Source: Candidatus Aenigmatarchaeota archaeon (lineage in GTDB: Archaea; Aenigmatarchaeota; Aenigmatarchaeia; CG10238-14; SCSR01). From it: a stretch of 64,000 nt of DNA. Where the stretch lies: contig JACPAE010000001.1 of assembly GCA_016181005.1 (NCBI GenBank), positions 90,508-154,507 on the forward strand, written 5' to 3'. The notes under the pieces were generated by a model. That model made no database searches, was not told the origin of the DNA, and saw nothing but the letters and a program-made list of their open reading frames with translations. The position numbers and the translations under genes are program-made. Positions 7,273 to 22,518 of the stretch are shown piece after piece. How positions within the stretch are numbered: the first letter of the stretch is position 1; the number at the start of each line of letters is the position of its first letter.

Positions 7273-7276
7273 ACCT

Positions 7277-7369
7277 ATGAACAGAAGAATTTCAAGCGTT
7301 GTGATTGGCGTTGTCAGCCTTTTGATGTTCTCCACTCTTGTTTTTGCGCAGACAGGCTTTGACGACTGA
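7277..7369 (+). CDS. 30-aa micro-ORF, signal-peptide-like / single-TM peptide (MNRRISSVVIGVVSLLMFSTLVFAQTGFDD)
   Basis: ATG sits 5 nt after the upstream stop, and its TGA overlaps the downstream ATG (tgATGa). It is below the ORF-table length cutoff. Confidence 0.3.
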   Translation: MNRRISSVVIGVVSLLMFSTLVFAQTGFDD

Positions 7370-7839
7370 TGAGGTCGAAGATTTTCGGCGAAAAGGGCGG
7401 CATTCCAATCGTCATTGCGCTTGCAGCGGCGGCGTACATAACTGTTTACACGCCAGTAGGCATTTCGTTCAGCCAGTTCCTTGCGAATTTCGTAGGCAAC
7501 ACGATGGTGGTTATTCTTACCTTGCTGGCAGTTTTAATGATGGCTGCAATGCTTAAGACCGGAGGTATAGACTTCGCTGGCATGTTCGCGGGAAATACTT
7601 TATGGGTGGCTTTGATTTTCCTACTTTTGATAGTGTTCGGTGTTTTCATCGCAAGCGGCGGGGCTTCTATATTCCCTGGTTTGAATTTGCTCCCTACCGA
7701 GACATTCAGGACAATAGGTGGAGCTGACACGACCACAGTGGCGCTGATTCTTCTGGTATTTGGAACCGGCTTAATTATCCTTCTGGTCACCAGAGGAAAT
7801 GGTGGTGGGGCTGGTGCTGGCGGACCTCCTCGTCCGTAA
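7369..7839 (+). CDS. membrane protein with Gly-rich C-terminal tail
   Basis: 156 aa with 4 TM helices. The C-terminus is RGNGGGAGAGGPPRP. Confidence 0.45.
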   Translation: MRSKIFGEKGGIPIVIALAAAAYITVYTPVGISFSQFLANFVGNTMVVILTLLAVLMMAAMLKTGGIDFAGMFAGNTLWVALIFLLLIVFGVFIASGGASIFPGLNLLPTETFRTIGGADTTTVALILLVFGTGLIILLVTRGNGGGAGAGGPPRP

Positions 7840-7879
7840 TCCACTGGCTTTATATACCAGTTCTGCATAATAGTTACTT

Positions 7880-8515
7880 ATGAGTGGCAATTTTAGGATG
7901 CTCACATCCAGCCTGTACGGTGGACCTACAATTCTTGTAGAGGATGGCGCGGATGCCACAAGGGTAAACGAGATCAGAAACACTATCGTAAAGCATGAGA
8001 ACGGTCTTGCAAATTTCATGAGCAGATATATACCAGGCGCAAGGAACCTTGTAAATAAGGGGGTTTACTACATACAAAGACTTGGTAGAAGGCTTGGCGG
8101 GCAATACAATCCAGCCACAGATAATTTGCAGATTAATGTCGACCAGAAGAGGGACTTTATGGACGAGTCTACTGCGCACGAGAAGATACACTTTTATCAG
8201 AAGGTTGGCGGTGCATTGGAAACTTACTGGAGCACTCTTGTGAAAAATCTGGGCTATGTTGGAGCGATGCTTTACAGGCCTATAATTGAGGGAGGAGCAT
8301 CCTACATGACGCAGAAATACAGAAATAGAGAAAGCCTAGATGCATATGAACATTATAGAGCTGGCGCTAGAGCTGTTGCAGAGAAACATGGCGAGGGCGT
8401 TTTGGTCAACCCGCCTAGAAATGAGAACAAGGTAATGCAAATAGCTAACACTTTCTTCAATGCAATGATGAGCTACATGAGAGGAAATCCCAGAAGGGCT
8501 TATGCTCTAGCCTAA
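7880..8515 (+). CDS. HExxH zincin-like protein, DUF4157-like
   Basis: GARNLV...GGQYNPAT...STAHEKIHFYQK resembles the DUF4157 signature (GARAFT...GxYxP...LLAHELTHVVQQ). The HExxH motif is seen directly. Confidence 0.45.
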   Translation: MSGNFRMLTSSLYGGPTILVEDGADATRVNEIRNTIVKHENGLANFMSRYIPGARNLVNKGVYYIQRLGRRLGGQYNPATDNLQINVDQKRDFMDESTAHEKIHFYQKVGGALETYWSTLVKNLGYVGAMLYRPIIEGGASYMTQKYRNRESLDAYEHYRAGARAVAEKHGEGVLVNPPRNENKVMQIANTFFNAMMSYMRGNPRRAYALA

Positions 8516-9244
8516 TGACTCCAAGAACTCGTTTTCCGAAAAGTGCAGTTTCCCGGGAATTATTATCACTGAAGGCGTGTCTTGTGACTTGACTTCTTCT
8601 GCAATTGTATATTCTATATGAGGCTTGTCGCTTCCGGCTTTGCCGAAAACAACAGCCTTGTCTTTTGCCGTAACGACTTTCCCTTTCAACAAAATTTCCA
8701 CAGCTTCCTTAGGCGTCATGTATTTATCATTCTCAGCCAAGACATCTAACAAACATAAAGTATGCAATCCGCGCTTCTTGTTTTCTTCGATAGTTTCAAA
8801 GATTGATTTTGATAATTTCCCTTTGGCTCTCTCAGGAAACGAGATTGTAACCGTCGGGCCGAATTTGTAAACATGAAGTCCTGTTTCCCCGATTGCAGAA
8901 AAGATGGAAGCATTGTGGATTATCTTTGTCTCTACTCCTGCTTTTCTTGCCTCAAGGATTAAAGCGGAATGAGTCGTCGCTATCAGAGGATCTCCCTGCA
9001 CAAATATCGAGATTGATTTTGCTTTCGATTCTTGGATTATCTTATTGGAATCGTCTTCCAAGTCTTTCCTTTCAAGCTGGATAATTTTTTTACCGACTAG
9101 ATTTTCCAGATTGGACAAGTTGCCGTGCCACTTTCCCGTATAGTTTTCTATGTAAACTTTGTCGGAATTTTTTGCTTCTTCTACAGCTCTGAGTGACAAA
9201 TCATTTTCGTCGAAAAGACCTAGGCCTATTAACGTGAGTGCCAT
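8507..9244 (-). CDS. dphB: diphthine synthase (diphthamide biosynthesis methyltransferase)
   Basis: MALTLIGLGL start, GDPLIATTH and LHVYKFG motifs of the tetrapyrrole-methylase-fold Dph5 family, about 245 aa. Confidence 0.85.
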   Translation of the reverse strand: MALTLIGLGLFDENDLSLRAVEEAKNSDKVYIENYTGKWHGNLSNLENLVGKKIIQLERKDLEDDSNKIIQESKAKSISIFVQGDPLIATTHSALILEARKAGVETKIIHNASIFSAIGETGLHVYKFGPTVTISFPERAKGKLSKSIFETIEENKKRGLHTLCLLDVLAENDKYMTPKEAVEILLKGKVVTAKDKAVVFGKAGSDKPHIEYTIAEEVKSQDTPSVIIIPGKLHFSENEFLESLG

Positions 9245-9272
9245 AATAAGACTTGGACGATAAAGCTAAAAG

Positions 9273-10073
9273 TTAAACTATCCCGAATAATCTACCAGCT
9301 ACTGCGCTGGTGACACCAAGTGCAATTCCAGCTTCATGCGTAAGAACTACAAAATACACACCGCCCACTCTACCCCAAGGATTCCCATAGCGAGTTCTGA
9401 AGTGAGTTGCACCGTCGTTATAAACTCTCTGAACGGCCGTTGCATAACGATTCCCTAAGGCTCTCGCCCCTCTGCCAACTGCAGAGGCTCCGGATCTCAT
9501 GCCTCTCCCAATTCCATTGGCTGCCCTACCGTACAAACCGGCACTACCTGCGCCTATAAGCAATGAAGGTACCAAACCGATTGCTGCTCCTTCAATAGCG
9601 CCGTCTCCTAATCTCTGAACATAATTTGGCAGATTCTGATAACTGTCTACGACACCGCCCACCAAAGGCCAATTATTCAAGGCACCTAGAAGTGACTGGT
9701 ATCTATCAGGCTCGAAATAATGGCCTATTCCATTCAAGACAGCACCCAAGTAGGCAGACCTAGGAGTCATCCCTAGAAATGCATTTGCGTATCTTTCGCC
9801 GGCTGGTGTACCAGGAACGCTTGCGTTTTCTCGGAAATTATTAACCGCACCTTCAATGACAAGCGGTGCTGCAAAAAGTCCCATTGTCTCTATGCTGCTA
9901 GGTACCCCGTATCTTACAAAAGCGTCTTCTATATTTGTAGGGTTTAATTCTCCTAGAGTAGGAGCAGCATGCCTAACCGTATCTGCAATACCTGAAATCG
10001 TTGCTCCAATAATCAGTTTTAATGGACTTGCTGAAATATGCCCTATTGATTGTCGCGGTTGTACTATTGCCAT
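9273..10073 (-). CDS. glycine/alanine-rich hypothetical protein with hydrophobic C-terminus
   Basis: 266 aa with strong Gly/Ala/Arg bias and GxxxG-type repeats. It lies 4 nt downstream of the next gene. Confidence 0.4.
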   Translation of the reverse strand: MAIVQPRQSIGHISASPLKLIIGATISGIADTVRHAAPTLGELNPTNIEDAFVRYGVPSSIETMGLFAAPLVIEGAVNNFRENASVPGTPAGERYANAFLGMTPRSAYLGAVLNGIGHYFEPDRYQSLLGALNNWPLVGGVVDSYQNLPNYVQRLGDGAIEGAAIGLVPSLLIGAGSAGLYGRAANGIGRGMRSGASAVGRGARALGNRYATAVQRVYNDGATHFRTRYGNPWGRVGGVYFVVLTHEAGIALGVTSAVAGRLFGIV

Positions 10074-10077
10074 AAAA

Positions 10078-10434
10078 TCACTTAGCTGCAGCCGAAGGCT
10101 TCATCCCGCTTCTTATTCCTGCATATGCCCTATCTGCGCCATAGCCGATGCTTCTTGTCACTCCCCATGCCACTGCGCCTGTGAAAAGTGCCGGAGCCAA
10201 TAAGCCTGCTGTAAGAAAAGTGCCTATTCCTGCCAATGCTCCGAAAATATTGCTCCATCCTTTGTAGGGCTTTTCTATTACCTGATGCCTTAATTGATTC
10301 TTTACTCCGTTGTACACGCTTCTGGCCCTGTCTGTCATGCTGTACAAACTTTCGCTGCCTGTTTCCATGCCAGCGTCCTGGTAAGGCCCCAAGCTTCCTG
10401 CGCTTTCGTAACCATAATTTGCTCTCATGTTCAC
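10078..10434 (-). CDS. small glycine-zipper-like membrane protein
   Basis: 118 aa with GALAGIGTFLTAGLLAPALFTGAVAWG. A TATA-like ctttatata lies about 25 nt upstream on the minus strand. Confidence 0.4.
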   Translation of the reverse strand: MNMRANYGYESAGSLGPYQDAGMETGSESLYSMTDRARSVYNGVKNQLRHQVIEKPYKGWSNIFGALAGIGTFLTAGLLAPALFTGAVAWGVTRSIGYGADRAYAGIRSGMKPSAAAK

Positions 10435-10525
10435 TACTTGAAAGTGACAGTATATAAAGATTTCTATCCTCCACTATACACTTCAGAAACCAGCTTTCTT
10501 AACCTTCGACCGGCTAATTCTATGA

Positions 10526-10870
10526 ATGGAAGAAGTGGCACTCCAGTATCTCGTATGGTTCGGATTTGCAATTGTCGGAGCTGTCGTAACATTCTACGTC
10601 TTCGGCGCCGAGCTGCCTATATACCTGCTTATATCAGTCATCGGGCTTTTCCTTTACACCACTGCCAGCAACCCGCTGGTAAAGTTCTCTGGAGGATGGG
10701 TCGGAAGGCTTGCGGTAATACTGTTCCTCGTCAGCCTTGTTTACTATATGGTCACGAGCAACTTTTTCCCAGAGAACATATTCGAGTTCAAGTTTTTCAT
10801 GGCAGGGACTAGCTTTGTGGGCGAGCAGTCGAAGAACCTGGGCGAACTTGTTTTAAACTTTATCAGGTAA
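10526..10870 (+). CDS. small integral membrane protein
   Basis: 114 aa with three hydrophobic helices. Confidence 0.4.
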   Translation: MEEVALQYLVWFGFAIVGAVVTFYVFGAELPIYLLISVIGLFLYTTASNPLVKFSGGWVGRLAVILFLVSLVYYMVTSNFFPENIFEFKFFMAGTSFVGEQSKNLGELVLNFIR

Positions 10871-10879
10871 AGTAGTTGC

Positions 10880-11743
10880 ATGAGGCCGCTTGCCAAGTTT
10901 CTTGAGAACCAGCTGACGAAGGACGAGCTGGAGATGGTTCCGAAGAGCTATGATGTCATGGGTTCGGAGGGGAAGGGTGTCGCCATTATAGAGATTCCCA
11001 AGAAGCTGGAAGACAAGAAGCATTTGATTGCAGAGGCTGTCATGGACGTGAACAAGAATGTCAAGTCTGTTTTGAATAAAGTTTCTGGCCGCAAGGGGAC
11101 TTTTAGATTGGATGAACTGGAGTTGGTTGCCGGAGATGAGGATACCGAAGTTTTGCACAAGGAATATGGATATATGCTCAAGCTTGACCCGCAGAAGGTA
11201 TTCTTTTCGCCGAGGGAGGCTACCGACAGGGACAGGATTGCATCTTTAGTGAAACCTGGTGAGACTGTATTGGTGTTATTCTCTGGAGTCGCGCCTTATC
11301 CGATAGCTATTGCAAAGAAGTCTGATGCTAAAGTTTATGGTGTGGATATCAATCCGGCTGCGCATGAATACGCCAAGGAGAATATCCGAATCAACAAGCT
11401 GGCGCACAGGATTGTCGTTATTAATGATGACGTGAGGAATGCTGGCAGGATTTTTGATTTCAAGTTTGACAGAATCGTGATGCCAATTGCTGTCGGAGGG
11501 GAGGATTATCTGGATGAGGCGTTTTCAATGGTGAAGGATGGTGGCGTTATTCACTTTTATTCGTTTGGTGATGAAAAGGATTTGTTTTCGAAGGCGGAAG
11601 GTTTTGTCAAGGAAGCTGCAAATAGAAACAACATAAAGTTTGTTGTGGAACAGAAGAATAAGGTATTGCCGTTTGGCATTAGAAGCCATAAGATTTGCTT
11701 GGACATTAAAGCAGGGGTACCCAAGCCTGGTCTAAGGGACTAG
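10880..11743 (+). CDS. trm5: tRNA (guanine37-N1)-methyltransferase Trm5/Taw22-like (Met-10+ family)
   Basis: SAM fold ETVLVLFSGVAPYPIAIAKK...VYGVDINPAA...RIVMP. The last 33 nt overlap the tRNA-Leu 5' end. Confidence 0.75.
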   Translation: MRPLAKFLENQLTKDELEMVPKSYDVMGSEGKGVAIIEIPKKLEDKKHLIAEAVMDVNKNVKSVLNKVSGRKGTFRLDELELVAGDEDTEVLHKEYGYMLKLDPQKVFFSPREATDRDRIASLVKPGETVLVLFSGVAPYPIAIAKKSDAKVYGVDINPAAHEYAKENIRINKLAHRIVVINDDVRNAGRIFDFKFDRIVMPIAVGGEDYLDEAFSMVKDGGVIHFYSFGDEKDLFSKAEGFVKEAANRNNIKFVVEQKNKVLPFGIRSHKICLDIKAGVPKPGLRD

Positions 11744-11796
11744 CTTCAGGAGCTGGCGGCTTAGTGCCTTCGAGAGTTCGAATCTCTCCCCCTGCA
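11711..11796 (+). tRNA. tRNA-Leu (anticodon CAG), class II with long variable arm
   Basis: Hand-folded cloverleaf. Acceptor GCAGGGG/CCCCTGC forms 7 perfect base pairs. D-stem is CCC/GGG. Anticodon stem is CTAGC/GCTGG with loop TTCAGGA. Variable arm is 15 nt. T-arm is GAGAG-TTCGAAT-CTCTC with discriminator A. No encoded CCA. Confidence 0.85.
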
Positions 11797-12007
11797 CTTT
11801 GGATTTAGAGGAATTCTAGAAGATACTATTGTCTAAAGGTTTAGGACTAATTCCATTTGAAATAAGTATGATTATCTATTAAGTATAAATTTAATTATAG
11901 ATGGAAAAACTTTATACTTCTAGATAAAATCTCCTAAATGTTAATTCTGATGTGTTGCTCTTTAGGAACAACTTTAAGCATATAACTTCGTGTGATGATA
12001 TGTTCTT

Positions 12008-12490
12008 TCATTTTATGCCTATATCACCAAAAAATTCCAATAAGTTCAAACACCTGATTCCAAAATTTTGAGCTATTACAGGAATTCTATTTGCTTTTGT
12101 TTTGCTTTCATTTGTAACAATTATGGCGTTCATACAAATACTCAATGAAATTATCCATGGATCGGCCCATGCAGTAAGACCGTTGGTTTGAGTATTCCAA
12201 TAGTCTAGATTGTATTTCGTTTTTACTTTCTGCAAATTACTTACTTGTGCATTATCGACATTTATGAATATTTTTCTATTCTGTTGACACCATACAATCA
12301 ATTTGTTGTTACCATTTTGAATTTCTCTTTGGACCTCAATCGGTGCAATAATTTTATCACTAGCTACAAATTTTTCAATTTGTTTCCAAATAGGTAAAAA
12401 AATTACTTTATTCTTTGGGTACCATCTATCAAGATCAATCAGGGAGCTGGAATCAATACAATATGGAGGAATTAATCTCTTCTGCAACAA
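12008..12490 (-). CDS. DUF4411-family PIN-like putative nuclease (partner of ImmA/IrrE peptidase)
   Basis: 160 aa, 4 nt downstream of the COG2856-type gene. This conserved pair is known from defence islands. Confidence 0.55.
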   Translation of the reverse strand: MLQKRLIPPYCIDSSSLIDLDRWYPKNKVIFLPIWKQIEKFVASDKIIAPIEVQREIQNGNNKLIVWCQQNRKIFINVDNAQVSNLQKVKTKYNLDYWNTQTNGLTAWADPWIISLSICMNAIIVTNESKTKANRIPVIAQNFGIRCLNLLEFFGDIGIK

Positions 12491-12494
12491 GTCA

Positions 12495-13583
12495 TCACCC
12501 TATAAGTTTTTCTGCATATTTTGTTTTGACATTCAGGATTCCTGTAGCTTCAGAAAATGCTATGTCACCTTTCTTATAGGCTCCACTAACTTCTTTAATC
12601 GCTAGATTACCGACACGGTTAAAGAAAACCTTTTCCCATTTTCTACGAGCAAATTCATTTTTTTCCATTTTTTCTTTATAAAAAGTTTCTTTGAACATGT
12701 TGTAAATTCTACCGTCGATTTTTCGAATAAAAAGAAGTCTAAGCATCACGACTTGCTTGCTAACACCGTAGTGCTGAGAAATGTCTGAAATATTACTCCA
12801 ATTAATTTTTTCTAGTCCTTTTACCGCTATTTCTAAATTATTTCTAGGAACAAGAAATTCGGCAGAAAATGAATCACAATAATTCTCAATTGATTGCTTA
12901 TTTTCTTGTTCGATTTCAATAGAACAAATTGCGGATGTTCTTTTAAGCAAATGACAGACTTCATGAAAAAGCGAGAATAACTTTACAGTAGATTTATCAC
13001 TTTCATTTAGAACAATTATTGACATTTTTGAAAATATGCTAAATGCTCTAATATCATCTGCTCTAAAAGGATACTCTATGATTAGTATAGAAAGTTTTTC
13101 TTCTAAAATTTTCTTGTAATAAGGAAGTATCTCATCATATTTGCGAAACTCATGATTATCTATTTTCAAAAGTTTCTTGAATGATTCTACCAATTGCGTG
13201 GCAGTTAAATCTTCTGGAAAAATAGGAATCTGGCTTTGTTTTTCACTCAATTCTGCAATTTTACTAGCTAAATATTGTGCTCTTCTTTCGGCCAAGAATA
13301 TTTCTGGAGTAAGTTTTTTTTCACGGTTTATTCTATAATCTGGTATAGTCTCCAGTTTCGATATTCTCTCTGTAAAAAAGGCTATTAAAGGACGTTGATA
13401 AATATCAGATAGTCTCCTAATTTCTGTCATGGTTAAAAAATCTCGTCCAGATTCTATATTTTCAAGTTTTTCTTGGGAACGACCAAGCTTTTTTGCGATA
13501 TCTTTTAGTGTATATCCAGAACTTTCGCGAAGATAGAGTAAACTAGCAATCGGGACTTTTATTGTCTTATTTTTCTTCGTCAT
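12495..13583 (-). CDS. XRE-type HTH + ImmA/IrrE-family Zn-metallopeptidase (COG2856)
   Basis: N-terminal HTH (YTLKDIAKKLGRSQEKLENIESG) and HExxH in LFHEVCHLL. Confidence 0.8.
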   Translation of the reverse strand: MTKKNKTIKVPIASLLYLRESSGYTLKDIAKKLGRSQEKLENIESGRDFLTMTEIRRLSDIYQRPLIAFFTERISKLETIPDYRINREKKLTPEIFLAERRAQYLASKIAELSEKQSQIPIFPEDLTATQLVESFKKLLKIDNHEFRKYDEILPYYKKILEEKLSILIIEYPFRADDIRAFSIFSKMSIIVLNESDKSTVKLFSLFHEVCHLLKRTSAICSIEIEQENKQSIENYCDSFSAEFLVPRNNLEIAVKGLEKINWSNISDISQHYGVSKQVVMLRLLFIRKIDGRIYNMFKETFYKEKMEKNEFARRKWEKVFFNRVGNLAIKEVSGAYKKGDIAFSEATGILNVKTKYAEKLIG

Positions 13584-13635
13584 CTAAAACACATTATAAT
13601 TCTGCCATAATTGAAATAAGTTCAATTAATTTATA

Positions 13636-13776
13636 TTATTTTTCTTTTATTTTCTTCTTAATCAATTCTTCCAATAAGCTGGATGCTGAAGTTTCTTCTT
13701 CTATAGCTTTGATTTTGAATTTTTTCCATACCTCTCGATCTATAAGTATAGTCGTCCTAGAAAGATTCTTATCCAT
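13636..13776 (-). CDS. 46-aa ribbon-helix-helix (CopG/Arc-like) DNA-binding micro-protein
   Basis: MDKNLSRTTILIDREVWKKFKIKAIEEETSASSLLEELIKKKIKEK follows the beta-strand/two-helix RHH pattern. It lies upstream of and on the same strand as the ImmA operon, and is below the ORF-table cutoff. Confidence 0.45.
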   Translation of the reverse strand: MDKNLSRTTILIDREVWKKFKIKAIEEETSASSLLEELIKKKIKEK

Positions 13777-13884
13777 GTAATAATTGTGCAAAAGTAATAC
13801 TTATATACTTGAGTAATAATGTAATAATTATGCATCTGGAAAGATATTTAAATAGAGTCTGCGAAATAAAGAAAGAGGTTTTCC

Positions 13885-14955
13885 ATGTCTAAATCACTGA
13901 CTGTGTTGGATTTCTTTTGCGGTGCGGGTGGTTTTTCTGAAGGGTTCAAACAGTTAGGTTTTGATGTCGTTTATGGTGCAGATAATTGGAATCCTGCTAT
14001 CCAAACATTCAAAGCCAACAATTCCGATGCAGAAGTAGTCAAAGTTGATGTTCTAGAACTCAGTGCAACAGATGTACCTAAAGCTGATGTAATTATTGGA
14101 GGACCACCTTGTACAGAGTTCTCAGGATCGAATAGAGGAGGAAGTGGAAATGTAAAAGAAGGTATGGAACTTGTAAAAAGATTTTTGTATTATGTGCACG
14201 AGTTGAAACCTAGATGGTGGATTATGGAGAATGTACCTAGACTGTTGCAGACCCTGCCACCAAAATTTAGATTGAAAGATTTGGGTATTGATAAAGAAGG
14301 TATTTTCGAAATACCTAAAATGCAGGTATTCAATGCTGCGGATTTCGGCGCACCGCAAAAAAGAACAAGATTGTTATCAGGTAAATACCCGAACCCTCTA
14401 CAGACGCATTCTGAAAATCCTGTAGTTACATTGAACGGACAGAAACTATCGCATTGGTTCACAATGAGAAAAGTAATAGAATCATTTCCTAACCCGTTGA
14501 ACGAACCACGAAAGGGAAAGCACGTCAAAGATCCAAATTATAACTTCAATGTTACTGAGATGAAATTAGAGGATCATTTCGGCGACCATTCCATTATGAA
14601 AGATGAAGAGGCCGAAAGAAACAAGAGACAGAAAACGGAACATCCGTATTATGGGAAGATGAAATTTCCCGACGACTTGGACAGACCATCGAGAACTGTG
14701 ATGGCGACTCAGTTCAATGCATCACGAGAGACCATGGTCATCGCGATGAGTAATAACGGTCGCAAGATTATTTATAGGAAACCCACGATAAGAGAATGTG
14801 CATCATTGCAATGCTATCCTATAAACTACAAATTCATCGGCACAAACCCCACCACAAAGTACAAGCTGGTGGGAAATTCCGTTCCCGTGAAGTTGTCTAT
14901 GGCTGTCGCGAAAGCCATACTGAGAGAAGCTGGAATGAGAACTCGGAAAAACTAA
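13885..14955 (+). CDS. dcm: DNA (cytosine-5)-methyltransferase
   Basis: Motif I FCGAGGFSEGF, motif IV GGPPCTEFS, ENV, and the C-terminal target-recognition region. Confidence 0.9.
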   Translation: MSKSLTVLDFFCGAGGFSEGFKQLGFDVVYGADNWNPAIQTFKANNSDAEVVKVDVLELSATDVPKADVIIGGPPCTEFSGSNRGGSGNVKEGMELVKRFLYYVHELKPRWWIMENVPRLLQTLPPKFRLKDLGIDKEGIFEIPKMQVFNAADFGAPQKRTRLLSGKYPNPLQTHSENPVVTLNGQKLSHWFTMRKVIESFPNPLNEPRKGKHVKDPNYNFNVTEMKLEDHFGDHSIMKDEEAERNKRQKTEHPYYGKMKFPDDLDRPSRTVMATQFNASRETMVIAMSNNGRKIIYRKPTIRECASLQCYPINYKFIGTNPTTKYKLVGNSVPVKLSMAVAKAILREAGMRTRKN

Positions 14956-15740
14956 GCTCTTAGTGACATCCTTGCCTGTTTTTCAGAGGCGTTTGTGTAT
15001 CGTCTAAGCAGATAATATACGACGGACATGTATACGCTCGCACGCCTTGATTGATTCAAATTCAGACTGTGAAAACTGTAGAACCATGCATCGCCTCTAT
15101 TGGCCTCTTCGCATGCAAAAGCCAAGACAAGGGAAGCAACCATAATCCTCAACGGGACATCTTTCAAGCTCCTTATCTCGCCGTTCTTCATGTAAGTGTC
15201 GCCATCCAACCTGATGTTACCATATCCGTCCTTCGGGAAATGTTTCTCGACGAGCTGTTTGGTGAGTTCTACTATGTCGTCTGAAGAAATTATTCCTTTG
15301 CTCCTATAGACGCCATCAATGTTACTCTGCAATGTCGTCGCGTCTGGAATTTTCATAGCTATGCTCTCTAGGACGTCGTCTATGAAACCGTCCATGATTT
15401 TGGACCTGGTGGGGAAGTCTTCTCTCATCCATTTGACAAGAGTCTCGGTTATTTTGAAATGTGGCAGAGCATCAGTCGAACATTGCTCACGACTTAACCC
15501 TGGTGGTATTATCCTCCCTATCCAATCACACACGTGAGATATTTTGATGGTACTATGAATTGGACAGAGGCCGAACATGGACCTTGTAGTACGCTCACAT
15601 TCCGGATGTCTGCATTTTATGACGATGCCTGAGTGGTTCACTGGTGTCGGGTTCTCCTTCGGCAAACCACCCCCATTGGAAAATTCGACGATGTATCCTC
15701 CTTCTTCAAGGACTATACTGTCGTACATCTTTAGTGACAT
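14952..15740 (-). CDS. hypothetical Cys-cluster protein; candidate cognate restriction endonuclease (positional inference only)
   Basis: 262 aa, convergent with dcm (4-nt overlap) and translationally overlapping vsr upstream. Carries CRHPECERTTRSMFGLCPIHS. No family recognised. Confidence 0.3.
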   Translation of the reverse strand: MSLKMYDSIVLEEGGYIVEFSNGGGLPKENPTPVNHSGIVIKCRHPECERTTRSMFGLCPIHSTIKISHVCDWIGRIIPPGLSREQCSTDALPHFKITETLVKWMREDFPTRSKIMDGFIDDVLESIAMKIPDATTLQSNIDGVYRSKGIISSDDIVELTKQLVEKHFPKDGYGNIRLDGDTYMKNGEIRSLKDVPLRIMVASLVLAFACEEANRGDAWFYSFHSLNLNQSRRASVYMSVVYYLLRRYTNASEKQARMSLRA

Positions 15741-16155
15741 ATCTCTTAATCCTACCTAAAACCTTATCTGGATTACTCCTTATATCATGCTCCCAAAATT
15801 CAAATACTTTCCATCCTAGATTATCAAGTTCTTTTTTATTGATTTTATCTCGTTCGATGTTACGTTCGAACTTCCTTTTCCAGAATTCTGTATTTGTTTT
15901 AGGTATAGGCAGATTGCATTTTTTACACTTATGCCAAAAACAACCATTAACAAATACGGCAATCTTTTTCTTAGGGAAAATAAAATCCGGATTTCCTGGC
16001 AATGTGTTTCTTTCAATCTTTTTCTTCAATAACATGGATAGAATTTTTTCAGGTTTTGTACCACGGGGTTTATTGGATTTCATTGACTTGGAGACAGTTT
16101 TTGAGTTTGATTTAGGTGATTTTCCTACAGGTTGAGTTGTATACGCACGTTTCAT
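15706..16155 (-). CDS. vsr: very-short-patch-repair endonuclease
   Basis: GNPDFIFPKKKIAVFVNGCFWHKC...NTEFWKRKFERNIERDK...GWKVFEFWEHD is the canonical Vsr/DUF559 signature. Confidence 0.85.
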   Translation of the reverse strand: MKRAYTTQPVGKSPKSNSKTVSKSMKSNKPRGTKPEKILSMLLKKKIERNTLPGNPDFIFPKKKIAVFVNGCFWHKCKKCNLPIPKTNTEFWKRKFERNIERDKINKKELDNLGWKVFEFWEHDIRSNPDKVLGRIKRYVTKDVRQYSP

Positions 16156-16372
16156 GAAGAATATGTTGTAACCGAAAAGCTTATTTATTTCAAATACAAC
16201 TGTTATTCAATACAATACAGCCGACGCATGTTCGGTTTGTCCTGTAAAGGGGCACTTGAATGGAGTAGTATTGAAATCTATTCCTGATAATTTACTGGAT
16301 ATGTGACGTTTGTTGAGTATGGTTTGCGTATAGCGAACCTTTAAAAGGTCGTAAAGACCGGAGGAAAATAAA

Positions 16373-17407
16373 ATGCAAAATTTGAAAACGAAAGAATCTT
16401 CAGGTTGGGTTCGATTCAAGGCTTTAGAAGCCAAACAACCTGGTGGTACCCTTTACACTATAGTCATGAAAGGGAAAGATTTGGTTTCCAAATCTCGAGT
16501 TCTTACTAGAGACAAAGACGATGAAGGTGTGCAGAGAATCTTGAGTAAGGCGAGATGCAGAAGGATAGCTAGATTTTATGCTATGGATGACACACTCTTG
16601 CCTGGAAATATCGTAAGCACAATAGATAATAACGATGTCCGCATAGAAGATGGACATGTTCAAATAAGTAAAGACTTCATAAACGAAGTAATAGATGGTC
16701 AGCATAGATTGTGGGGATTTGATCCTGAGTATAATGAACAAGGGACGGATTTCGATGTGATACTCACATTCTTAATCGGTGCTGACGTGCAAACTAAAGC
16801 AAAACTCTTCTACAAAATCAATAAAGAACAAAAGAAAATAAATCCAAGTCTAGCATATGATTTGCTAATCGTAATGGGTAGCGATGAACTGAAAGCAGAG
16901 ATTGCTAAAGTTGTACAGGATTTGAACGAAGACAAAGAATCTGCATTCTACGGAACAATAAAAATCAGAGAAACCAGCGAAGGTACGATTTCGATGGCTA
17001 CAATGGCCCATAAAATCGAACAGTTTCTTAAGGGACCCATGGGAAAACGTTTCCTCGATAGAGAAGAACTAAACAAACAAGTTCTCTATGACGTATTAAG
17101 AAACTATTTCACAGCAGTGAAAAACTTGTTACCAGACGCATGGTCCGATTCGAATTGCATACTAGTCAAATCATTGGGTTGTGGCGCTCTGATAGAACTA
17201 CTTCCAGATGTGATATCTGAACACACGTCTAGAAATGGCCGTACAGTACCGACAGTAAAACAGTTTGTAGAGATAATGAAACCCGTATCATCATTCGACT
17301 TCTATGATCAAGAAGTAACTAACTTGGGTGGTGAAAAGGGTCAGAGATATCTAGCTAATCTATTAGTGGAAGAAATTGGAATCGGGGGATTCGAGGTGGG
17401 AAAATAA
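16373..17407 (+). CDS. DGQHR-domain protein (DndB-like, ParB-nuclease superfamily)
   Basis: Literal DGQHR motif (EVIDGQHRLWGF) in a DndB-like N-terminal context (GVQRIL...RIARFY). 344 aa. Confidence 0.8.
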   Translation: MQNLKTKESSGWVRFKALEAKQPGGTLYTIVMKGKDLVSKSRVLTRDKDDEGVQRILSKARCRRIARFYAMDDTLLPGNIVSTIDNNDVRIEDGHVQISKDFINEVIDGQHRLWGFDPEYNEQGTDFDVILTFLIGADVQTKAKLFYKINKEQKKINPSLAYDLLIVMGSDELKAEIAKVVQDLNEDKESAFYGTIKIRETSEGTISMATMAHKIEQFLKGPMGKRFLDREELNKQVLYDVLRNYFTAVKNLLPDAWSDSNCILVKSLGCGALIELLPDVISEHTSRNGRTVPTVKQFVEIMKPVSSFDFYDQEVTNLGGEKGQRYLANLLVEEIGIGGFEVGK

Positions 17408-17433
17408 CCCACCCTTAATTTTAAGTGATGTGA

Positions 17434-18306
17434 ATGGACGAAGAAACGTTAAGAAAACTCCAAAGTGAATATACAAACTCTAAAGGGTCAGAGAAACAAA
17501 GATTGTGGAGAGAAGAAAATCTACGAAAAGAATTTGTTGAAAATTTTCCCATAGAAGAAATACCTAAGATGAAACTTGAAGATTATGTTGTGGGATTACC
17601 TAAAGAAGATGGCACAAGAAATATTCATAGTTTTTGCAATTGGATTGAAAATGTTACGCAGGAATCTGGACAGATATGGATTGGTGGTTCTGGCGCATAT
17701 GTTATTTTCTTTGAAGTTGAGCGTGATGGTGAGATGATAAACTCATTTATGATTAGAGAAGGTAACGAAAGCACCCCAATAAGAGAAGATGTAGCTGGAG
17801 AAGAATTTGAAAAAGTCAAAAGAATGTTGTATCGAATGTTGAAATTCGGAGAAGATGATAACATAGACGCAGTAAAATCAATTTATAACGAATTTAAGAT
17901 GCACAGTCATGTTAAAGCTAAGATTTTGCATTTGTATTTCCCTGAAATGTTTTTGAACGTTTTTTCAAGTTATTGGGTGAATAGTTATTTGAATTCTTTG
18001 GATTTACAAATAGAATCCGATGCGTTCGATGGTAGAATGTCTTTGATGAAGTTTAAACAAAATGATTCTATAATGTCTAAATGGACTACACAACAATTTG
18101 CAGATTTTCTATTGTACACGTTCCCACCTAACATTAAAGCTATTAAAGAGTTGGATAAAAAGAAAAAGGAATTAATCATCAGGATGAAAGAACTAGAATC
18201 GATGTTTATCAATGGTGAAAAGGGTTTAGAAGATGACGCACTTGAATATAATAAAAATCTACAGAAGAAAATAGACGAAATAAATAAACAACTAGAAGAA
18301 CTTTAA
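17434..18306 (+). CDS. hypothetical protein with C-terminal coiled coil, operonic partner of DGQHR protein
   Basis: 290 aa, 26 nt downstream on the same strand with the same AT-rich composition. No recognisable motif. Confidence 0.45.
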   Translation: MDEETLRKLQSEYTNSKGSEKQRLWREENLRKEFVENFPIEEIPKMKLEDYVVGLPKEDGTRNIHSFCNWIENVTQESGQIWIGGSGAYVIFFEVERDGEMINSFMIREGNESTPIREDVAGEEFEKVKRMLYRMLKFGEDDNIDAVKSIYNEFKMHSHVKAKILHLYFPEMFLNVFSSYWVNSYLNSLDLQIESDAFDGRMSLMKFKQNDSIMSKWTTQQFADFLLYTFPPNIKAIKELDKKKKELIIRMKELESMFINGEKGLEDDALEYNKNLQKKIDEINKQLEEL

Positions 18307-18356
18307 TTCAGAGATAACATACATTATCAATGAGCTAACGATACTTTCTTTACCCG

Positions 18357-18393
18357 CTCTAACACCATTTAAACCCAAAAAGCTGAATATTCT
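18357..18393 (+). promoter_or_regulatory. promoter-like motif copy 1 (aacaccatttaaa + downstream cc.aaa..c.gaatatt)
   Basis: Shares a 13/13 identical core plus a similar downstream half with the copy at 19068-19106. Confidence 0.3.
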
Positions 18394-18522
18394 CGTTATA
18401 GAACGAAAAGGACAAGATACTTGATGATCCAGCCGTACATAAAGAACTGCTAAGGAATTTCTATTAATTGCCGGGTAGTCCTAGGCTTATTTCTTTAAAA
18501 ATCCAACCAATATTCTATATAA

Positions 18523-18756
18523 GTGCTGGTAGGCATGGGAAAAAGAAAGCTTGGCCTCATACCCCCGATGTATGTAGAGCCAAACAGAAAAATGAAAAAC
18601 TTTATGAAAGTGGCCAAATATCCGAAAACCATTAGAGAGTACAAAGACCTTATGAAAAGTTTGAAAGCCAGTCCAAGAAACTTCAGTAAAAAGCTTCGAG
18701 AGTATACTTGGAAGGGTAAAACTGTGGCCGATATTGAGAAGGAACTAGCTGGATAA
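18523..18756 (+). CDS. small basic hypothetical protein
   Basis: 77-aa Lys-rich ORF. Confidence 0.3.
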   Translation: MLVGMGKRKLGLIPPMYVEPNRKMKNFMKVAKYPKTIREYKDLMKSLKASPRNFSKKLREYTWKGKTVADIEKELAG

Positions 18757-18774
18757 GTCCTAATAGGTGATGGT

Positions 18775-19035
18775 ATGAAATTGAAGATGAAACTCCCAAA
18801 AGAATTGGAGGTAAGGGTGCTTACGGCTTTATACAAGTACTATACAAAGGACGTGACCTTTGAGAGGGCCGCAGAGGACGAAAACATACCAATAGTATTA
18901 TTTGTAAACTATGTCAACGATAATGACCTGCCCATAGTACACACAGATAAAGACATGAGCGTTGGAATACAAAGGGTGCTGGTCCTTATGAAGGAAAGGG
19001 GTATGAAGGTTGACAAGTTAAGACTTTCTGCCTAA
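18775..19035 (+). CDS. small hypothetical protein
   Basis: 86-aa ORF 18 nt after the previous one. Confidence 0.3.
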   Translation: MKLKMKLPKELEVRVLTALYKYYTKDVTFERAAEDENIPIVLFVNYVNDNDLPIVHTDKDMSVGIQRVLVLMKERGMKVDKLRLSA

Positions 19036-19067
19036 GATATCCTAGATAATCACACTTTCATTACTCC

Positions 19068-19106
19068 CATAACACCATTTAAAAACCACAAATCAGAATA
19101 TTGATG
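19068..19106 (+). promoter_or_regulatory. promoter-like motif copy 2; TATA-like tttaaaa about 30 nt upstream of S2P ATG (leaderless)
   Basis: The motif ends 3 nt before the ATG at 19109. Confidence 0.35.
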
Positions 19107-19108
19107 TT

Positions 19109-20266
19109 ATGGTATCCTTCGAGATCGTCTCGCTTGTCGCATTCGCCACGGTCATAGGATTGTGGCTGTTGTCTGACAGGAAAAACAAGGAGATGACGTT
19201 CAAGTACGGCTTTATTATCAGGAGATGGACGAAGGGCTTGGAGCTTATCGACAAGGTGGTTTCCAGCCATCCAAGACTAATTACAATTGTCGGCAACATA
19301 GGGATCGGTATAGGTGTGTTGGCAGGACTGGGGGGTCTGGCCGTCCTGATATATCTCACAATTAACCTGCAGCAGGCGTTCCAGCTAGTTCTTCCAACAG
19401 CAGGCGGCTACCAGATACCTGGCCCTGTAATCTCGATACCTTTCTGGTACTGGCTGACAGCGATTTTCATCATCGTCGTCACGCATGAATCAATGCACGC
19501 AGTCTTCGCCAGACTGGAGAACGTCAAGGTGAAGAATTACGGAATCTTAATGCTTCTTCTTCTGCCGATAGGCGCGTTTGTCGACCCCGACGAGAAAAGA
19601 ATCAAGAAGCTAGGCACTATAAAGAAATTAAGAATATTTGCCGCCGGCAGCCTTGCCAACTTCATCACAGCAATAATCGGAGTCATTGTCCTGATATCAT
19701 CGGTGTTTCTCTTCACGTCCGCAACAAAGAACATGGGCGTCGCGATAGAGTCTGTGGAGCCCGGCTCGCCTGCGGACAAGGCAGGTTTGGAAGGGACTAT
19801 AACGGAGATCAATGCCATCAAAATCAACAACAGCCTTGACTTCGCCAAAGCCTTGAACAGCACGAAGGCCGGGGATACCCTGGACATAACAACAGACAGA
19901 GGCGTCTACAAGCTCGCGCTGGAGATCCATCCGAAAAATGAAAATAGGACCTACATGGGCGTAAGCATCAGGAACGCGTTCTCCTTCGACGTCTTCGGAC
20001 TGCAGGGAATAGTTTCCAGTGTGTTTTACAGCGTCTTCTTCACCGTAATCTCCTTCCTCAACTGGCTGATAGTGATCAGCGCTGGAGTGGGAACAGTTAA
20101 CATGCTCCCGATGAAGCCGTTGGACGGCGGCCTGTTCTTCGAGGAGATATTCACAAAAGTGTTTGGCGACAACGGAAAGAAACTGATTCTTGTCTCAAGC
20201 TACCTGATACTGGGATTGCTATTGCTGAACCTCTTCGGCCTTCCGCTGCTAAAGTCTATTCTTTGA
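19109..20266 (+). CDS. site-2 protease (M50 family intramembrane metalloprotease) with PDZ domain
   Basis: HESMHAVFA (HExxH) in a TM helix, PDZ-like middle region, NMLPMKPLDGG (LDG motif). Confidence 0.85.
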   Translation: MVSFEIVSLVAFATVIGLWLLSDRKNKEMTFKYGFIIRRWTKGLELIDKVVSSHPRLITIVGNIGIGIGVLAGLGGLAVLIYLTINLQQAFQLVLPTAGGYQIPGPVISIPFWYWLTAIFIIVVTHESMHAVFARLENVKVKNYGILMLLLLPIGAFVDPDEKRIKKLGTIKKLRIFAAGSLANFITAIIGVIVLISSVFLFTSATKNMGVAIESVEPGSPADKAGLEGTITEINAIKINNSLDFAKALNSTKAGDTLDITTDRGVYKLALEIHPKNENRTYMGVSIRNAFSFDVFGLQGIVSSVFYSVFFTVISFLNWLIVISAGVGTVNMLPMKPLDGGLFFEEIFTKVFGDNGKKLILVSSYLILGLLLLNLFGLPLLKSIL

Positions 20267-20816
20267 GAACTTCAGTCTTCCTGATCTCGAAATTCCTTAC
20301 GGGATAAATAATCCTGCCCTGCCGAATAATCCTGTTCTTGATCTCGTTGTTCATGACCTTGCTGATGAACTCCTCTAATGTGGAATTCTCAACCTCTTCC
20401 TTGACGATGCTCACGACATATTTCCTTATCTTCGCCTCGACATTTGTCCTTACTTTCTTCGACATGACTGTCAGTCCCTTTACGCGTAGCTTGACATTGT
20501 CCTGCGTCTTGAGGTCCTGCACAGAATCTATCCTCTTTATTCTCCTTAGAACCATCCTTGAGATGTAATCCTGCATGCATTCGAAACCGTCGAAAACTGT
20601 AGATGCCCTGGTCCCGTTTACAGCATCAATCTTGAACTTGAATTTGACATAGTACTTGTTCATGTCGTCCATAAGCTCTATGGCGTTAAGTATCAACCTC
20701 TTGCCTACGAGCGATTGCGGCTCCGCTGTCCGCGCCTTTCCTATGTCCTTCTCTCCGAAAACCTTCGGCGCCACAATCGTGCACCACTGCTTCCCCTTTA
20801 TCTTAACTGCCAACAA
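20256..20816 (-). CDS. rps3ae: 30S ribosomal protein S3Ae (eS1)
   Basis: 186 aa with the characteristic KxKGKQWxxIxAP...F N-terminus. Confidence 0.85.
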   Translation of the reverse strand: MLAVKIKGKQWCTIVAPKVFGEKDIGKARTAEPQSLVGKRLILNAIELMDDMNKYYVKFKFKIDAVNGTRASTVFDGFECMQDYISRMVLRRIKRIDSVQDLKTQDNVKLRVKGLTVMSKKVRTNVEAKIRKYVVSIVKEEVENSTLEEFISKVMNNEIKNRIIRQGRIIYPVRNFEIRKTEVLKE

Positions 20817-20817
20817 A

Positions 20818-21279
20818 TCAACCTTTCTGGATTATGAGCCTTGCCTTCTCTGGGTCGTACCTCCAGTCTGAAGGAAGCTTTTTTGTCCTGACATAGTACT
20901 TGACCAGCCTTCTTATCTTAGACTCGAGGTTCTGCAGGCCTCTCTTAGAATGCTTGTCCTGCTTGTTTGAAGACATGTGCTTCCTCAAGTTAACAGCTTT
21001 TCTTAATAAGAATAATAAATCTTCAGGTATCTCAGGATAATTCCCGCTCTCCTTCATTATCCCGCTCACAGGCTTTCCGGCGATAACCTGCACGTCCGGT
21101 ATTCCATGCGTGTCCCGGAGTATCGTGCCTATCATGGAAGACGAATATTTCTGCTTTGCAAGGCCTGCAACCATACCTTCGACATCCGCCTTGCTGTACT
21201 TGACCCATTTGGGGATAGACTTGTGCGGAGGCCTGTGGCTACCGCTCCTGCCTTTCTTGCCTGAGTAGATTCTTGCCAT
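20818..21279 (-). CDS. rps15: 30S ribosomal protein S15 (uS15, S13e type)
   Basis: MARIYSGKKGRSGSHRP...SKADVEGMV...LRDTHGIP; 153 aa. Confidence 0.9.
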   Translation of the reverse strand: MARIYSGKKGRSGSHRPPHKSIPKWVKYSKADVEGMVAGLAKQKYSSSMIGTILRDTHGIPDVQVIAGKPVSGIMKESGNYPEIPEDLLFLLRKAVNLRKHMSSNKQDKHSKRGLQNLESKIRRLVKYYVRTKKLPSDWRYDPEKARLIIQKG

Positions 21280-21339
21280 AATTTCACGGTAAATGTTTTA
21301 GAAATCTATATTTATCTATCTTTATAAAGTACGCCAAGG

Positions 21340-21966
21340 TCATTCCCTGTTCGCATATCTTGCCCGCTTTTCAATCTCCGTCAACTGCTGCAGGACTGCG
21401 CCTGTGTTTTTGTACTCCGACTTGTAGCCGGCAAGTATTCCGCTCCAAATGGTGTTGAAATTCTGGAAGTGGGTTGACTTGACCGCCTCTTTCAGCAACT
21501 TCAAGTCCACCCCCTTGTCTTCAATCCTTTGCGTGAAATCGCCGAGGCTAAAGTCTATCATGTAAATCTTGCCGTTGCTGAGAATCATGTTCGATGTCGT
21601 CAAGTCCCCGTGAACTATGTCACTTGCGTGCAGCTTTCCTATTATCCTGCCCAATTCCCTGCACAGTGGTTCCAAATCTTCCTTTGAAGCTGCGTTCAAA
21701 TAGTCCCTTAATTTTTCGCCTTTGACAAACTCCATAACGATTTTGCAGCTCTTTTCATCAACTGAAAATATCTTCGGCGTGGATATTCCAAGCTTCCTTG
21801 CTTCTGTCAGCAGCTTCACTTCTTTCCTCGTCCTGAGCTTCCTCAGCTCCTCGTCCAGCTCCTTTACCCTGTATTTTTTCGGAGTCCTTTCCTTGACGAG
21901 AACGTCCTCGCCATCGAAGGAGTCGATGTACACAACAGCTTCAGCCCCGCGGTACAGAATTTCCAT
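21340..21966 (-). CDS. bud32: Bud32/PRPK-type small kinase (KEOPS subunit)
   Basis: 208 aa. LYRGAEA... resembles the Bud32 glycine-loop region (inexact), with HGDLTTSNMIL catalytic loop and DFSLGDF. Confidence 0.8.
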   Translation of the reverse strand: MEILYRGAEAVVYIDSFDGEDVLVKERTPKKYRVKELDEELRKLRTRKEVKLLTEARKLGISTPKIFSVDEKSCKIVMEFVKGEKLRDYLNAASKEDLEPLCRELGRIIGKLHASDIVHGDLTTSNMILSNGKIYMIDFSLGDFTQRIEDKGVDLKLLKEAVKSTHFQNFNTIWSGILAGYKSEYKNTGAVLQQLTEIEKRARYANRE

Positions 21967-21978
21967 AAATTAAAAGCT

Positions 21979-22518
21979 GTGGCAAACTATTTAATACTGA
22001 TGAAGATAGACTGGAAAGTTTACGCGGCTGTGATGGGACTGGCGTTGATAGCGGCTATTGCACTATTCATAGCTAAAATTTTCTATCTTGTGGGCGCGAT
22101 TCTAGCCACACTGCTTTTGGCGTTATTGCTGGGGGTCATGAAGCCGGTGAAATACTTGGGAATCGAATTGGTCACATTGTCCACAATACTTATCGGGATA
22201 ATGTTCGGGTCTTTAATCGGAGCTGTATACGGGGCTGTGGTTCTGATAGCCCATTTGATTCTTGGGAGATACTATATAGGCCCTTATTTACTGTGGCTGT
22301 TGCCAGAATATGCACTGATTGGAGTTGTATCCGGCGTCATGGGCAATGGCATTATAAGCTTGGTGGGTGTGTCGGTAATAGCGGGCATGAATTTTGTCAA
22401 TCTATTTTTGACTTTCCTTGTGGACCGAGAACGCGTTGGCCCCTACGTGCCGTATGTCTTGGGGAATGTTGTAATAAATTCCTTGCTGCTGATGCAGGTC
22501 ATGCCGCTGCTTCTCTAA
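21979..22518 (+). CDS. polytopic membrane protein
   Basis: 179 aa with 5-6 TM helices. Confidence 0.45.
   Translation: MANYLILMKIDWKVYAAVMGLALIAAIALFIAKIFYLVGAILATLLLALLLGVMKPVKYLGIELVTLSTILIGIMFGSLIGAVYGAVVLIAHLILGRYYIGPYLLWLLPEYALIGVVSGVMGNGIISLVGVSVIAGMNFVNLFLTFLVDRERVGPYVPYVLGNVVINSLLLMQVMPLLL

Follow-up and report, generated by a model that had tools for sequence, protein, structure and literature searches.

Defence islands are described in PMC12988326 with reference to Makarova et al. 2011, and the same paper reports that restriction-modification (RM) systems are under-represented in small-genome DPANN archaea, which are also CRISPR-poor. Genomic and defence islands adjacent to tRNA genes, together with hotspots between core genes, are the closest described systems for the locus reported here, which lies in a stretch of 64,000 nucleotides (nt) (the window; positions 90,508 to 154,507 of contig JACPAE010000001.1) from the metagenome-assembled genome (MAG) of an uncultured Candidatus Aenigmarchaeota archaeon (DPANN). 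Between the genes for tRNA-Leu(CAG) and an S2P metalloprotease, the window carries ~7.3 kb (11798 to ~19053) that we read, with high confidence, as a horizontally acquired, mosaic and lineage-specific defence island inserted at the tRNA-Leu(CAG)/S2P junction. Like the known islands, it starts at a tRNA 3′ end, has an atypical composition, is absent from relatives and holds several unrelated modules. It differs from them in having neither an integrase nor a duplicated tRNA 3′ end, in that its sole flanking repeat copies the promoter of the downstream gene, and in its small-genome DPANN archaeal host. The island consists of one small repeat-bounded cassette and three independent defence modules, which fit within 6.5 kb: a type II methyltransferase accompanied by Vsr, an RmrA-like protein beside DUF4411, and a DGQHR protein followed by one that has a PD-T4-1-like domain.

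The core genes on the two sides and the left junction are as follows (positions are those of the window).

10880-11743, plus strand: trm5, tRNA m1G37 methyltransferase, left core flank (Pfam TRM5-TYW2_MTfase 3.6e-48; 71% identity to the orthologue in relative L001)
11711-11797, plus strand: tRNA-Leu(CAG) (ARAGORN; Rfam tRNA, 49 bits at 11711-11796; alignable to the orthologous tRNA of L001)
11798-12007, no strand: left junction and non-coding leader (guanine-plus-cytosine content (GC) 0.26; likeness to relatives stops at the tRNA 3′ end)
19109-20266, plus strand: S2P (M50) metalloprotease, right core flank (Pfam; 66% identity to the L001 orthologue), followed by S3Ae and S15

Data from relatives showed an empty site at this junction. 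The comparison covered 27 loci, retrieved with Trm5 in one genome scan and one metagenome scan; only ~10 of them extend beyond the junction, all fairly distant (Trm5 ≤71%). In L001, the closest found (Trm5 71%, S2P 66%), the tRNA-Leu 3′ end and the S2P start codon are 38 nt apart, and in L018 (Trm5 65%) the same gap is 37 nt. Neither gap contains an open reading frame (ORF), and in both loci a TATA box stands 6-8 nt past tRNA-Leu. The gene order trm5, tRNA-Leu(CAG), S2P, S3Ae, S15 is common to L001, L018 and L024, and L019 and L023 follow the same trm5-to-S15 order as far as their contigs extend (Trm5 ~60% in L019, L023 and L024); in L025 and L026 (Trm5 54%), S2P abuts trm5 with no tRNA between. 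Nine island proteins (all but that of the ribbon-helix-helix (RHH) ORF), including the small o73 and o86, gave no tblastn match at E ≤ 1e-5 in the 27 loci. The empty junction of the relatives therefore points to a ~7.3-kb insertion, from 11798 to ~19053, in an otherwise conserved junction, and its first nucleotide, 11798, directly follows the tRNA end at 11797. According to this comparison, the insertion would have entered the ~40 nt that ancestrally separated the S2P promoter from the tRNA-Leu(CAG) 3′ end. The junction is also variable in the relatives themselves: in L019, L023 and L024 this tRNA is separated from S2P by small inserts of 203-824 nt that differ from one locus to the next, namely a 185-amino-acid (aa) ORF in L019, another ORF in L023 and a 203-nt segment in L024.

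The base composition changes at the same place. GC is 0.476 in the left flank (1-11797), 0.357 in the island up to 18342 (11798-18342) and 0.461 in the right flank (19054-28300); it drops directly after tRNA-Leu from ~0.47 to 0.36 and has recovered by ~19 kb, the low-GC block ending at ~18.4-18.5 kb. All 500-nt windows of the island are at or below 0.450, against a flank mean of 0.470 (standard deviation 0.026; Mann-Whitney p = 1.7e-7), and the median GC at third codon positions (GC3) is 0.29 for eight island genes (range 0.23-0.51) and 0.60 for 22 flanking genes (p = 5e-6). The three low-GC modules differ among themselves (GC 0.301, 0.410 and 0.356), so that the low-GC part of the island is itself a mosaic. 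The repeat-bounded 0.7-kb module near S2P has a GC of 0.388, and the GC3 values of its two ORFs, o73 and o86, are intermediate (0.43 and 0.52). A first-pass annotation, made from the letters of the window alone, had placed tRNA-Leu(CAG) directly 5′ of an AT-rich island and had proposed a synteny comparison with related genomes. The tRNA call was borne out by ARAGORN and Rfam and the AT-rich shift by both GC and GC3, and the synteny comparison placed trm5 and, where present, tRNA-Leu directly before the S2P/S3Ae block in the relatives, with no island proteins between.

The right end of the insertion lies in a short region with two repeat copies and two small ORFs.

18343-18399, plus strand: direct repeat copy B, degenerate S2P promoter (TTTAAA box) and start region, ATG changed to ATA
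18535-18756, plus strand: o73, small ORF (gene call in public assemblies; absent from the loci of relatives)
18775-19035, plus strand: o86, small ORF, weakly UPF0175-like, antitoxin-type helix-turn-helix (HTH) (Pfam UPF0175 E 0.055 and PADLOC PDC-S70 E 0.003, both weak; absent from the loci of relatives)
19054-19110, plus strand: direct repeat copy C, right junction with the core, S2P promoter (TTTAAAAA at 19079-19086) and start codon

An island end at ~18.4 kb, as first proposed, is right for the low-GC block but not for the insertion, whose right limit, as judged by comparison with the relatives, is ~19.05 kb. Copy C, the working S2P promoter, aligns with the tRNA-to-S2P sequence of L001 and L018, and copy B is its decayed copy. 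The repeat is 57 nt long with one gap and ~79% identity, and brackets only o73 and o86, a distance of 0.7 kb. Its local alignment score is 47, compared with a maximum of 26 elsewhere in the window on both strands, and the exact 14-mer TAACACCATTTAAA occurs only twice, at 18360 and 19070. Because the repeat surrounds o73 and o86 only, it speaks for more than one insertion event, at least one of which duplicated or brought in ~57 nt of target sequence. Most likely, no fewer than two separate insertions, and probably more, made up the island. In the order that we infer, an older insertion of o73 and o86 would have come first, with duplication of the promoter region, and at least one insertion of low-GC DNA between the tRNA and copy B would have followed. 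A third, leftmost repeat copy after the tRNA (CTAATTCCATTTGAAA, ~11847, core-like) was considered and rejected, its alignment score of 9 being background. A degenerate tRNA 3′ end before copies B and C gave no signal (scores 5-6), and promoter repeats around the inserts of L019, L023 and L024 were likewise at background (scores 17-24), so the promoter repeat is no general feature of the junction. The o73 protein matched no family in the NCBIfam, PHROGs and Pfam scans, and o86 had no match in the viral contigs searched.

The module next to the tRNA resembles a published type of toxin-antitoxin system. DUF4411.1 is described as the potential toxin of three-component HTH/DUF955/PIN systems, whose published layout is regulator, protease and PIN-like nuclease (PMC5499597), and phage defence has been demonstrated for RmrA/ImmA-type antitoxins in combination with a variety of toxins (PMC10440598). 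All three genes of the module lie on the minus strand, and the RHH gene is the first of the operon.

12008-12490, minus strand: DUF4411 PIN-like protein, candidate toxin (Pfam DUF4411 4.8e-26)
12495-13583, minus strand: HTH(XRE)-ImmA/IrrE M78 peptidase fusion, RmrA-like antitoxin or regulator (Pfam Peptidase_M78 1.8e-13 and HTH_31 1.3e-8; PADLOC RmrA 3e-16; PHROG 2439 4.5e-40)
13636-13776, minus strand: Arc-like RHH protein of 46 aa (PHROG Arc-like repressor 2e-6; Pfam RHH weak)

The peptidase fusion combines M78 with HTH_31, in keeping with RmrA, an ImmA/IrrE metallopeptidase antitoxin that often has an N-terminal HTH, and matched 12 PADLOC RmrA models, the best at 3e-16. The DUF4411 gene lies downstream on the same strand at a distance of 4 nt, so that HTH-ImmA followed by DUF4411 reproduces the published layout. 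Going by these domains and their order, the three genes would form a RosmerTA-like toxin-antitoxin operon, in which the Arc-like RHH protein and the HTH-ImmA/IrrE peptidase may restrain the DUF4411 PIN-like nuclease until infection. In accordance with RosmerTA and the HTH-DUF955(ImmA)-PIN systems, the HTH-ImmA/IrrE gene stands directly upstream of the PIN-like gene; the differences are the additional Arc-like RHH gene at the head of the operon and the archaeal host. The fusion protein scores 48.7 with the NCBIfam 'spr1629 antitoxin' model, far under the cutoff of 335. Its nearest homologue found lies on a tailed-phage contig, L053 (IMG/VR UViG_3300006674_000022, 5001-6184), with 52% protein identity and 66% DNA identity over 441 nt, and this phage-borne relative fits a horizontal origin. 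The same phage contig carries a terminase and a DnaD-like loader, and its HTH-ImmA gene is followed only by a 28-aa remnant of DUF4411.

Dcm-Vsr cassettes, for example arrangements of the EcoRII/Dcm/Vsr type, are a known form of type II RM system, which the second module resembles.

13885-14955, plus strand: dcm, C5 cytosine DNA methyltransferase (Pfam DNA_methylase, PF00145, 6.5e-48 over the whole length; PADLOC MTase_II 1.7e-60; TIGR00675 143.5 bits, over cutoff)
14952-15740, minus strand: RE262, 262-aa candidate restriction endonuclease (conserved linkage only)
15706-16155, minus strand: vsr, very-short-patch-repair endonuclease (TIGR00632 108.5 bits, over cutoff; Pfam Vsr 2.4e-16), upstream of RE262 with a 35-nt overlap

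The dcm gene converges on the vsr-RE262 pair, and its product carries the C5-methyltransferase domain of type II RM systems at full length. As in the known cassettes, a C5 methyltransferase and Vsr are accompanied by a third gene where the nuclease would be expected, and the trio recurs in other genomes; the difference is that the third protein of the island matches no known nuclease family or solved fold. The RE262 protein matched no family in the scans of the main island ORFs, which used Pfam, PADLOC, NCBIfam and PHROGs, and none of its 54 homologues (28-81% identity) has a Pfam domain or a functional name from its source. An AlphaFold2 model from 38 sequences is confident (pLDDT 94.2, pTM 0.91), and this predicted fold found no match among solved structures; a PDB profile search also returned nothing meaningful. 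A homologue lies beside a C5 methylase in three independent contexts, or in four of four when the window is counted. Homologues of dcm, RE262 and vsr occur together in L044 and L045/46, and those of dcm and RE262 in L042/43. This linkage, in itself, suggests that RE262 is the restriction enzyme of the cassette. Dcm would then methylate host cytosines, the putative nuclease RE262 would cut unmethylated DNA, and Vsr would repair the T:G mismatches that arise by deamination of 5-methylcytosine. The viral contigs searched for the RE262 family gave no match.

Two observations were made on the homologous pair in other genomes. In L042 (6749-8602) and L043, the C5 methylase beside the RE262 homologue is 617 aa long, and the additional C-terminal stretch of this methylase matches residues 110-222 of RE262 at 32% identity (E 3e-14); this likeness implies a helical domain common to the putative nuclease and the methylase, which may serve DNA recognition or interaction. 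Next to the same pair, at 8703-10877 of L042, stand a SLATT protein and a ThsB-like TIR protein.

The third module consists of two genes that are probably co-transcribed.

16373-17407, plus strand: DGQHR-domain protein of the ParB superfamily, DndB/DpdB-like (TIGR03187 136.6 bits against a cutoff of 58.85; PADLOC DpdB 1.6e-22)
17434-18306, plus strand: 290-aa protein, stand-alone N-terminal domain of PD-T4-1/McrB-like ATPases (PADLOC PD-T4-1 2.7e-31, profile positions 13-234 of 383 only), 26 nt 3′ of the DGQHR gene

The gene list of the first-pass annotation (RHH, HTH-ImmA, DUF4411, dcm, a candidate endonuclease and vsr) stands, except for its 'DGQHR pair', of which only one member has a DGQHR domain; the other is this PD-T4-1/McrB-like N-terminal domain. 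The DGQHR domain exceeds its domain cutoff, as in DndB and DpdB, but the protein is far below the equivalog cutoffs (81.5 against 300 for DpdB and 97.5 against 450 for DGQHR_dnd_1). Moreover, no dndACDE, dptFGH or dpdA was found between 11.8 and 19.1 kb in the Pfam, PADLOC and NCBIfam scans. With neither an equivalog score nor modification genes, the module does not belong to the Dnd or Dpd systems. For the 290-aa protein, a word-indexed homologue search returned only the query, and its relatives came from an exhaustive HMMER search. This search yielded 528 representatives, most of ~410 aa with a C-terminal NOV_C/DUF3883 domain (~290-380) and others of 550-850 aa with AAA_5. Residues 1 to ~240 are homologous to the N-terminal domain of PD-T4-1, a DUF3883 protein of E. 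coli, and of McrB-like AAA+ proteins; alignments with a Salmonella DUF3883 protein and an Acaryochloris McrB-like ATPase cover this shared domain only and stop before the nuclease domain. Unlike those proteins, the 290-aa protein has neither the DUF3883/NOV_C PD-(D/E)XK nuclease nor AAA_5 and stands alone next to the DGQHR gene; with both nuclease and ATPase domains missing, it is no member of PD-T4-1.

As a hypothesis, the DGQHR protein and the 290-aa protein could be a two-protein restriction-like system, in which the latter would provide the part that PD-T4-1/McrB-type proteins carry ahead of their nuclease or ATPase domain, and the former the enzymatic activity. The idea that the two are a conserved pair was rejected, as DGQHR homologues (46-51% identity) have different neighbours in three contexts; the partner genes beside the homologues in L049 and L052 gave no PADLOC match and no BLAST similarity. 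Accordingly, the two genes are paired only locally, and joint action is no more than that hypothesis. The DGQHR homologue of L052 has GmrSD and a CD-NTase with Cap15 in its vicinity (130-5456); here, as in L042, the homologue of an island gene stands in surroundings rich in defence genes.

Searches for the means of integration were negative. No integrase, recombinase or transposase family matched any of the main island ORFs in the four family collections, and the non-coding gaps of the island do not exceed 230 nt. The 28-mer from the tRNA 3′ end, with up to three mismatches allowed, occurs once in the 64 kb, and the best local score of the last 45 nt of the tRNA against 11798-19108 is 10, compared with a shuffle mean of 9.5. 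As a possible attP, the tRNA 3′ end is absent from IMG/VR. Thus, of the marks of an integrase-mediated tRNA element, the position at the tRNA 3′ end is present, and the integrase and the tRNA repeat at the far end are absent. The first-pass annotation had likewise reported neither an integrase nor a tRNA 3′ repeat, which family scans, the 28-mer search and shuffle-level local alignment confirmed; the one direct repeat that is present copies the S2P promoter instead. Recent classical integration at the tRNA is not supported, because both integrase and tRNA repeat are missing.

Independent assemblies bear on both junctions. Logan assemblies of nine Sequence Read Archive (SRA) runs (SRR12113384/385, SRR12113420-431) cover the locus at 100% identity (one contig 99.99%), with island genes in seven of the nine. 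Contig L010 (11767-29035) starts within the tRNA, crosses the entire island and ends ~10 kb beyond S2P, and L009, L012 and L013 carry island genes into or towards S2P. These four contigs, from four runs and at 100% identity, span the right side, which is therefore real DNA and no chimera. On the left side, contigs of four runs end at 11787 or 11796, within the tRNA, and island contigs begin at 11758 or 11767, an overlap of 21-30 nt. At 18436-18465, one contig ends at 18465 and the next one of the same sample begins at 18436, where a contig of a second sample also begins (break-point contigs: L003-L008, L010 and L015). The breaks at 11758-11796 and 18436-18465 are branch points of the assembly graph at both ends of the low-GC block, which would fit alternative sequences in the community or similar tRNAs of other organisms. 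No alternative allele was recovered at the locus among the Logan contigs, and all those covering this segment carry the identical island.

An integrase-less remnant and a recombination hotspot, the two options named by the first-pass annotation, remain the right pair to weigh, and they were judged separately as they are not mutually exclusive. The first would be what is left of an integrase-mediated element (virus, plasmid or integrative element) at the tRNA-Leu 3′ end, whose integrase and distal attachment repeat were later deleted. The start of the island exactly at the tRNA 3′ end suits this history, as does the phage-borne nearest relative of HTH-ImmA, and in several samples the Logan graphs branch within the last ~39 nt of the tRNA, as a shared att-like segment would cause, although similar tRNAs of other organisms could explain these breaks equally well. 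Neither an integrase nor a fragment of one was found, and the spaces between the island genes are no longer than 230 nt; 11798-19108 and IMG/VR both lack a copy of the tRNA 3′ end, and the differing GC of the three modules argues against a single element; we thus treat a decayed element as possible but rather doubtful. The second option is an integrase-independent hotspot, where related strains exchange defence cassettes through homologous recombination between their conserved flanks (trm5/tRNA-Leu to the left, S2P and ribosomal-protein genes to the right), as in the core-gene defence hotspots of bacteria. It accounts for core flanks that are kept across relatives 54-71% identical, for the different small inserts at the same junction and for the missing integrase and tRNA repeat, and the Logan break at 18436-18465 would be the point where alternative upstream sequences merge. 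Less easily reconciled with it are the identical island in every covering Logan contig, with no alternative allele recovered, and the promoter repeat, which looks more like site-specific or illegitimate insertion than recombination in flanks. Exchange through the flanks is accordingly quite possible, and we do not lean firmly towards it. Together, the conserved flanks, the different inserts in relatives (L019, L023 and L024, which lend the hotspot option some support) and the graph merge point favour a hotspot where cassettes accumulate or exchange, and the integration machinery would have been lost or would never have been on the island.

Two further explanations deny the insertion itself. 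The island genes might be ancestral here and deleted in relatives, which is conceivable in so far as only ~10 relative loci, all fairly distant, go past the junction. Several lineages would then need independent clean deletions, each restoring the ~40-nt spacing of tRNA and promoter, a GC3 of 0.29 against 0.60 is unlike long residence, and RM cassette homologues are found in settings unrelated to this one; this explanation is very improbable. A false join made in assembly or binning, with low-GC DNA of another organism attached at a shared tRNA, could draw on the left junction being found only in the MAG contig and on the Logan overlap of 21-30 nt lying within the tRNA. It is hardly credible in view of the right side, which L009, L010, L012 and L013 span at 100% identity in four runs, and of S2P, which is the ancestral neighbour of the tRNA, so that the join restores the expected synteny around the insert. 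A more ambitious proposal takes the ~57-nt B/C repeat as a reusable recombination site and the junction as a docking site for small defence cassettes, independent of integrase or served by one acting in trans, where each arriving cassette would duplicate or carry a promoter copy, as may be compared with integron attC; in the same proposal RE262 would represent a family of restriction endonucleases whose fold the PDB does not yet contain, and the DGQHR protein with the McrB/PD-T4-1 N-domain protein a new split restriction-like system. As one joint statement, this proposal is unlikely.

Several points weigh against the reading of the locus as an acquired mosaic defence island. The region 28-52 kb of the same window is likewise low in GC (0.387), and the GC of the core is uneven, so that low GC by itself is no proof of foreign origin here. 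No island-free strain of the same species was recovered, and the insertion is deduced from relatives that are 54-71% identical in Trm5. The junction of tRNA and island is spanned by the MAG contig alone, and further DNA could be collapsed there; the join is consistent with the synteny in relatives. Regarding function, RE262 has no recognisable nuclease fold or motif, and the closest DGQHR homologues have unrelated downstream genes, the pair not being conserved. The second atypical region itself, at 28300-52000, is larger than the island (24 kb) and nearly as low in GC; it is a glycan and sugar biosynthesis cluster with glycosyltransferases, an epimerase/dehydratase, a C-methyltransferase, PMT_2, a flippase, an NTP-transferase, an Asn-synthase-like protein and a DegT aminotransferase.

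The left flank shows some features of its own. The trm5 gene extends by its final 33 nt (11711-11743) into the start of tRNA-Leu(CAG), and the C-terminal codons of Trm5 (...KAGV) are the acceptor stem of the tRNA, GCAGGGGT. The overlap is kept, in a shorter form, in two relatives with the tRNA directly after trm5 (L001, ~10838-10849; L017, 856-877). Trm5 produces m1G37, and the tRNA-Leu species that read CUN codons are among its substrates; the gene of the enzyme therefore overlaps the gene of a likely substrate. The orthologous tRNA-Leu(CAG) genes of L001 (10838-10933) and L018 (~5538-5629) carry ~12 additional, conserved nt (…AAACAGAAAATT…) in the region of the D-arm, which the tRNA of the window lacks. 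This segment is probably a non-canonical archaeal intron, and because of it ARAGORN misses tRNA-Leu in both loci. In L019 (6301-7170), L023 (1048-1908) and L024 (1659-2393), all on the minus strand, a second, divergent Trm5/TYW2-like gene lies inverted between trm5 and tRNA-Leu; it is not present in the window, L001 or L018. In the more distant L037 (Trm5 47%), 7.4 kb (10864-18295) with a tRNA-Cys and a 1053-aa ORF separate trm5 from S2P. This locus was considered as a parallel island and set aside, as it shows no composition shift and has tRNA-Cys, and is probably a rearrangement in a distant lineage.

The island at the tRNA-Leu(CAG)/S2P junction is real but fairly ordinary; it fits an established pattern and would not surprise specialists. 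What modest interest it has comes from its DPANN host, from the exact comparison with empty sites, from two uncharacterised proteins and from the unusual promoter repeat. One of these, RE262, represents a family of ~54 protein clusters with a C5 methylase beside it in all four contexts examined and a confidently predicted fold without a match among solved structures; a second by-product is the PD-T4-1/McrB N-terminal domain that stands alone beside the DGQHR protein. Because the site is cleanly empty in relatives, the limits of the island can be placed exactly, which is rare for uncultured lineages. In addition, as a recent acquisition with clear limits and three defence modules, the island suggests that DPANN archaea are still able to take up immunity genes of bacterial or phage type at a defined hotspot.

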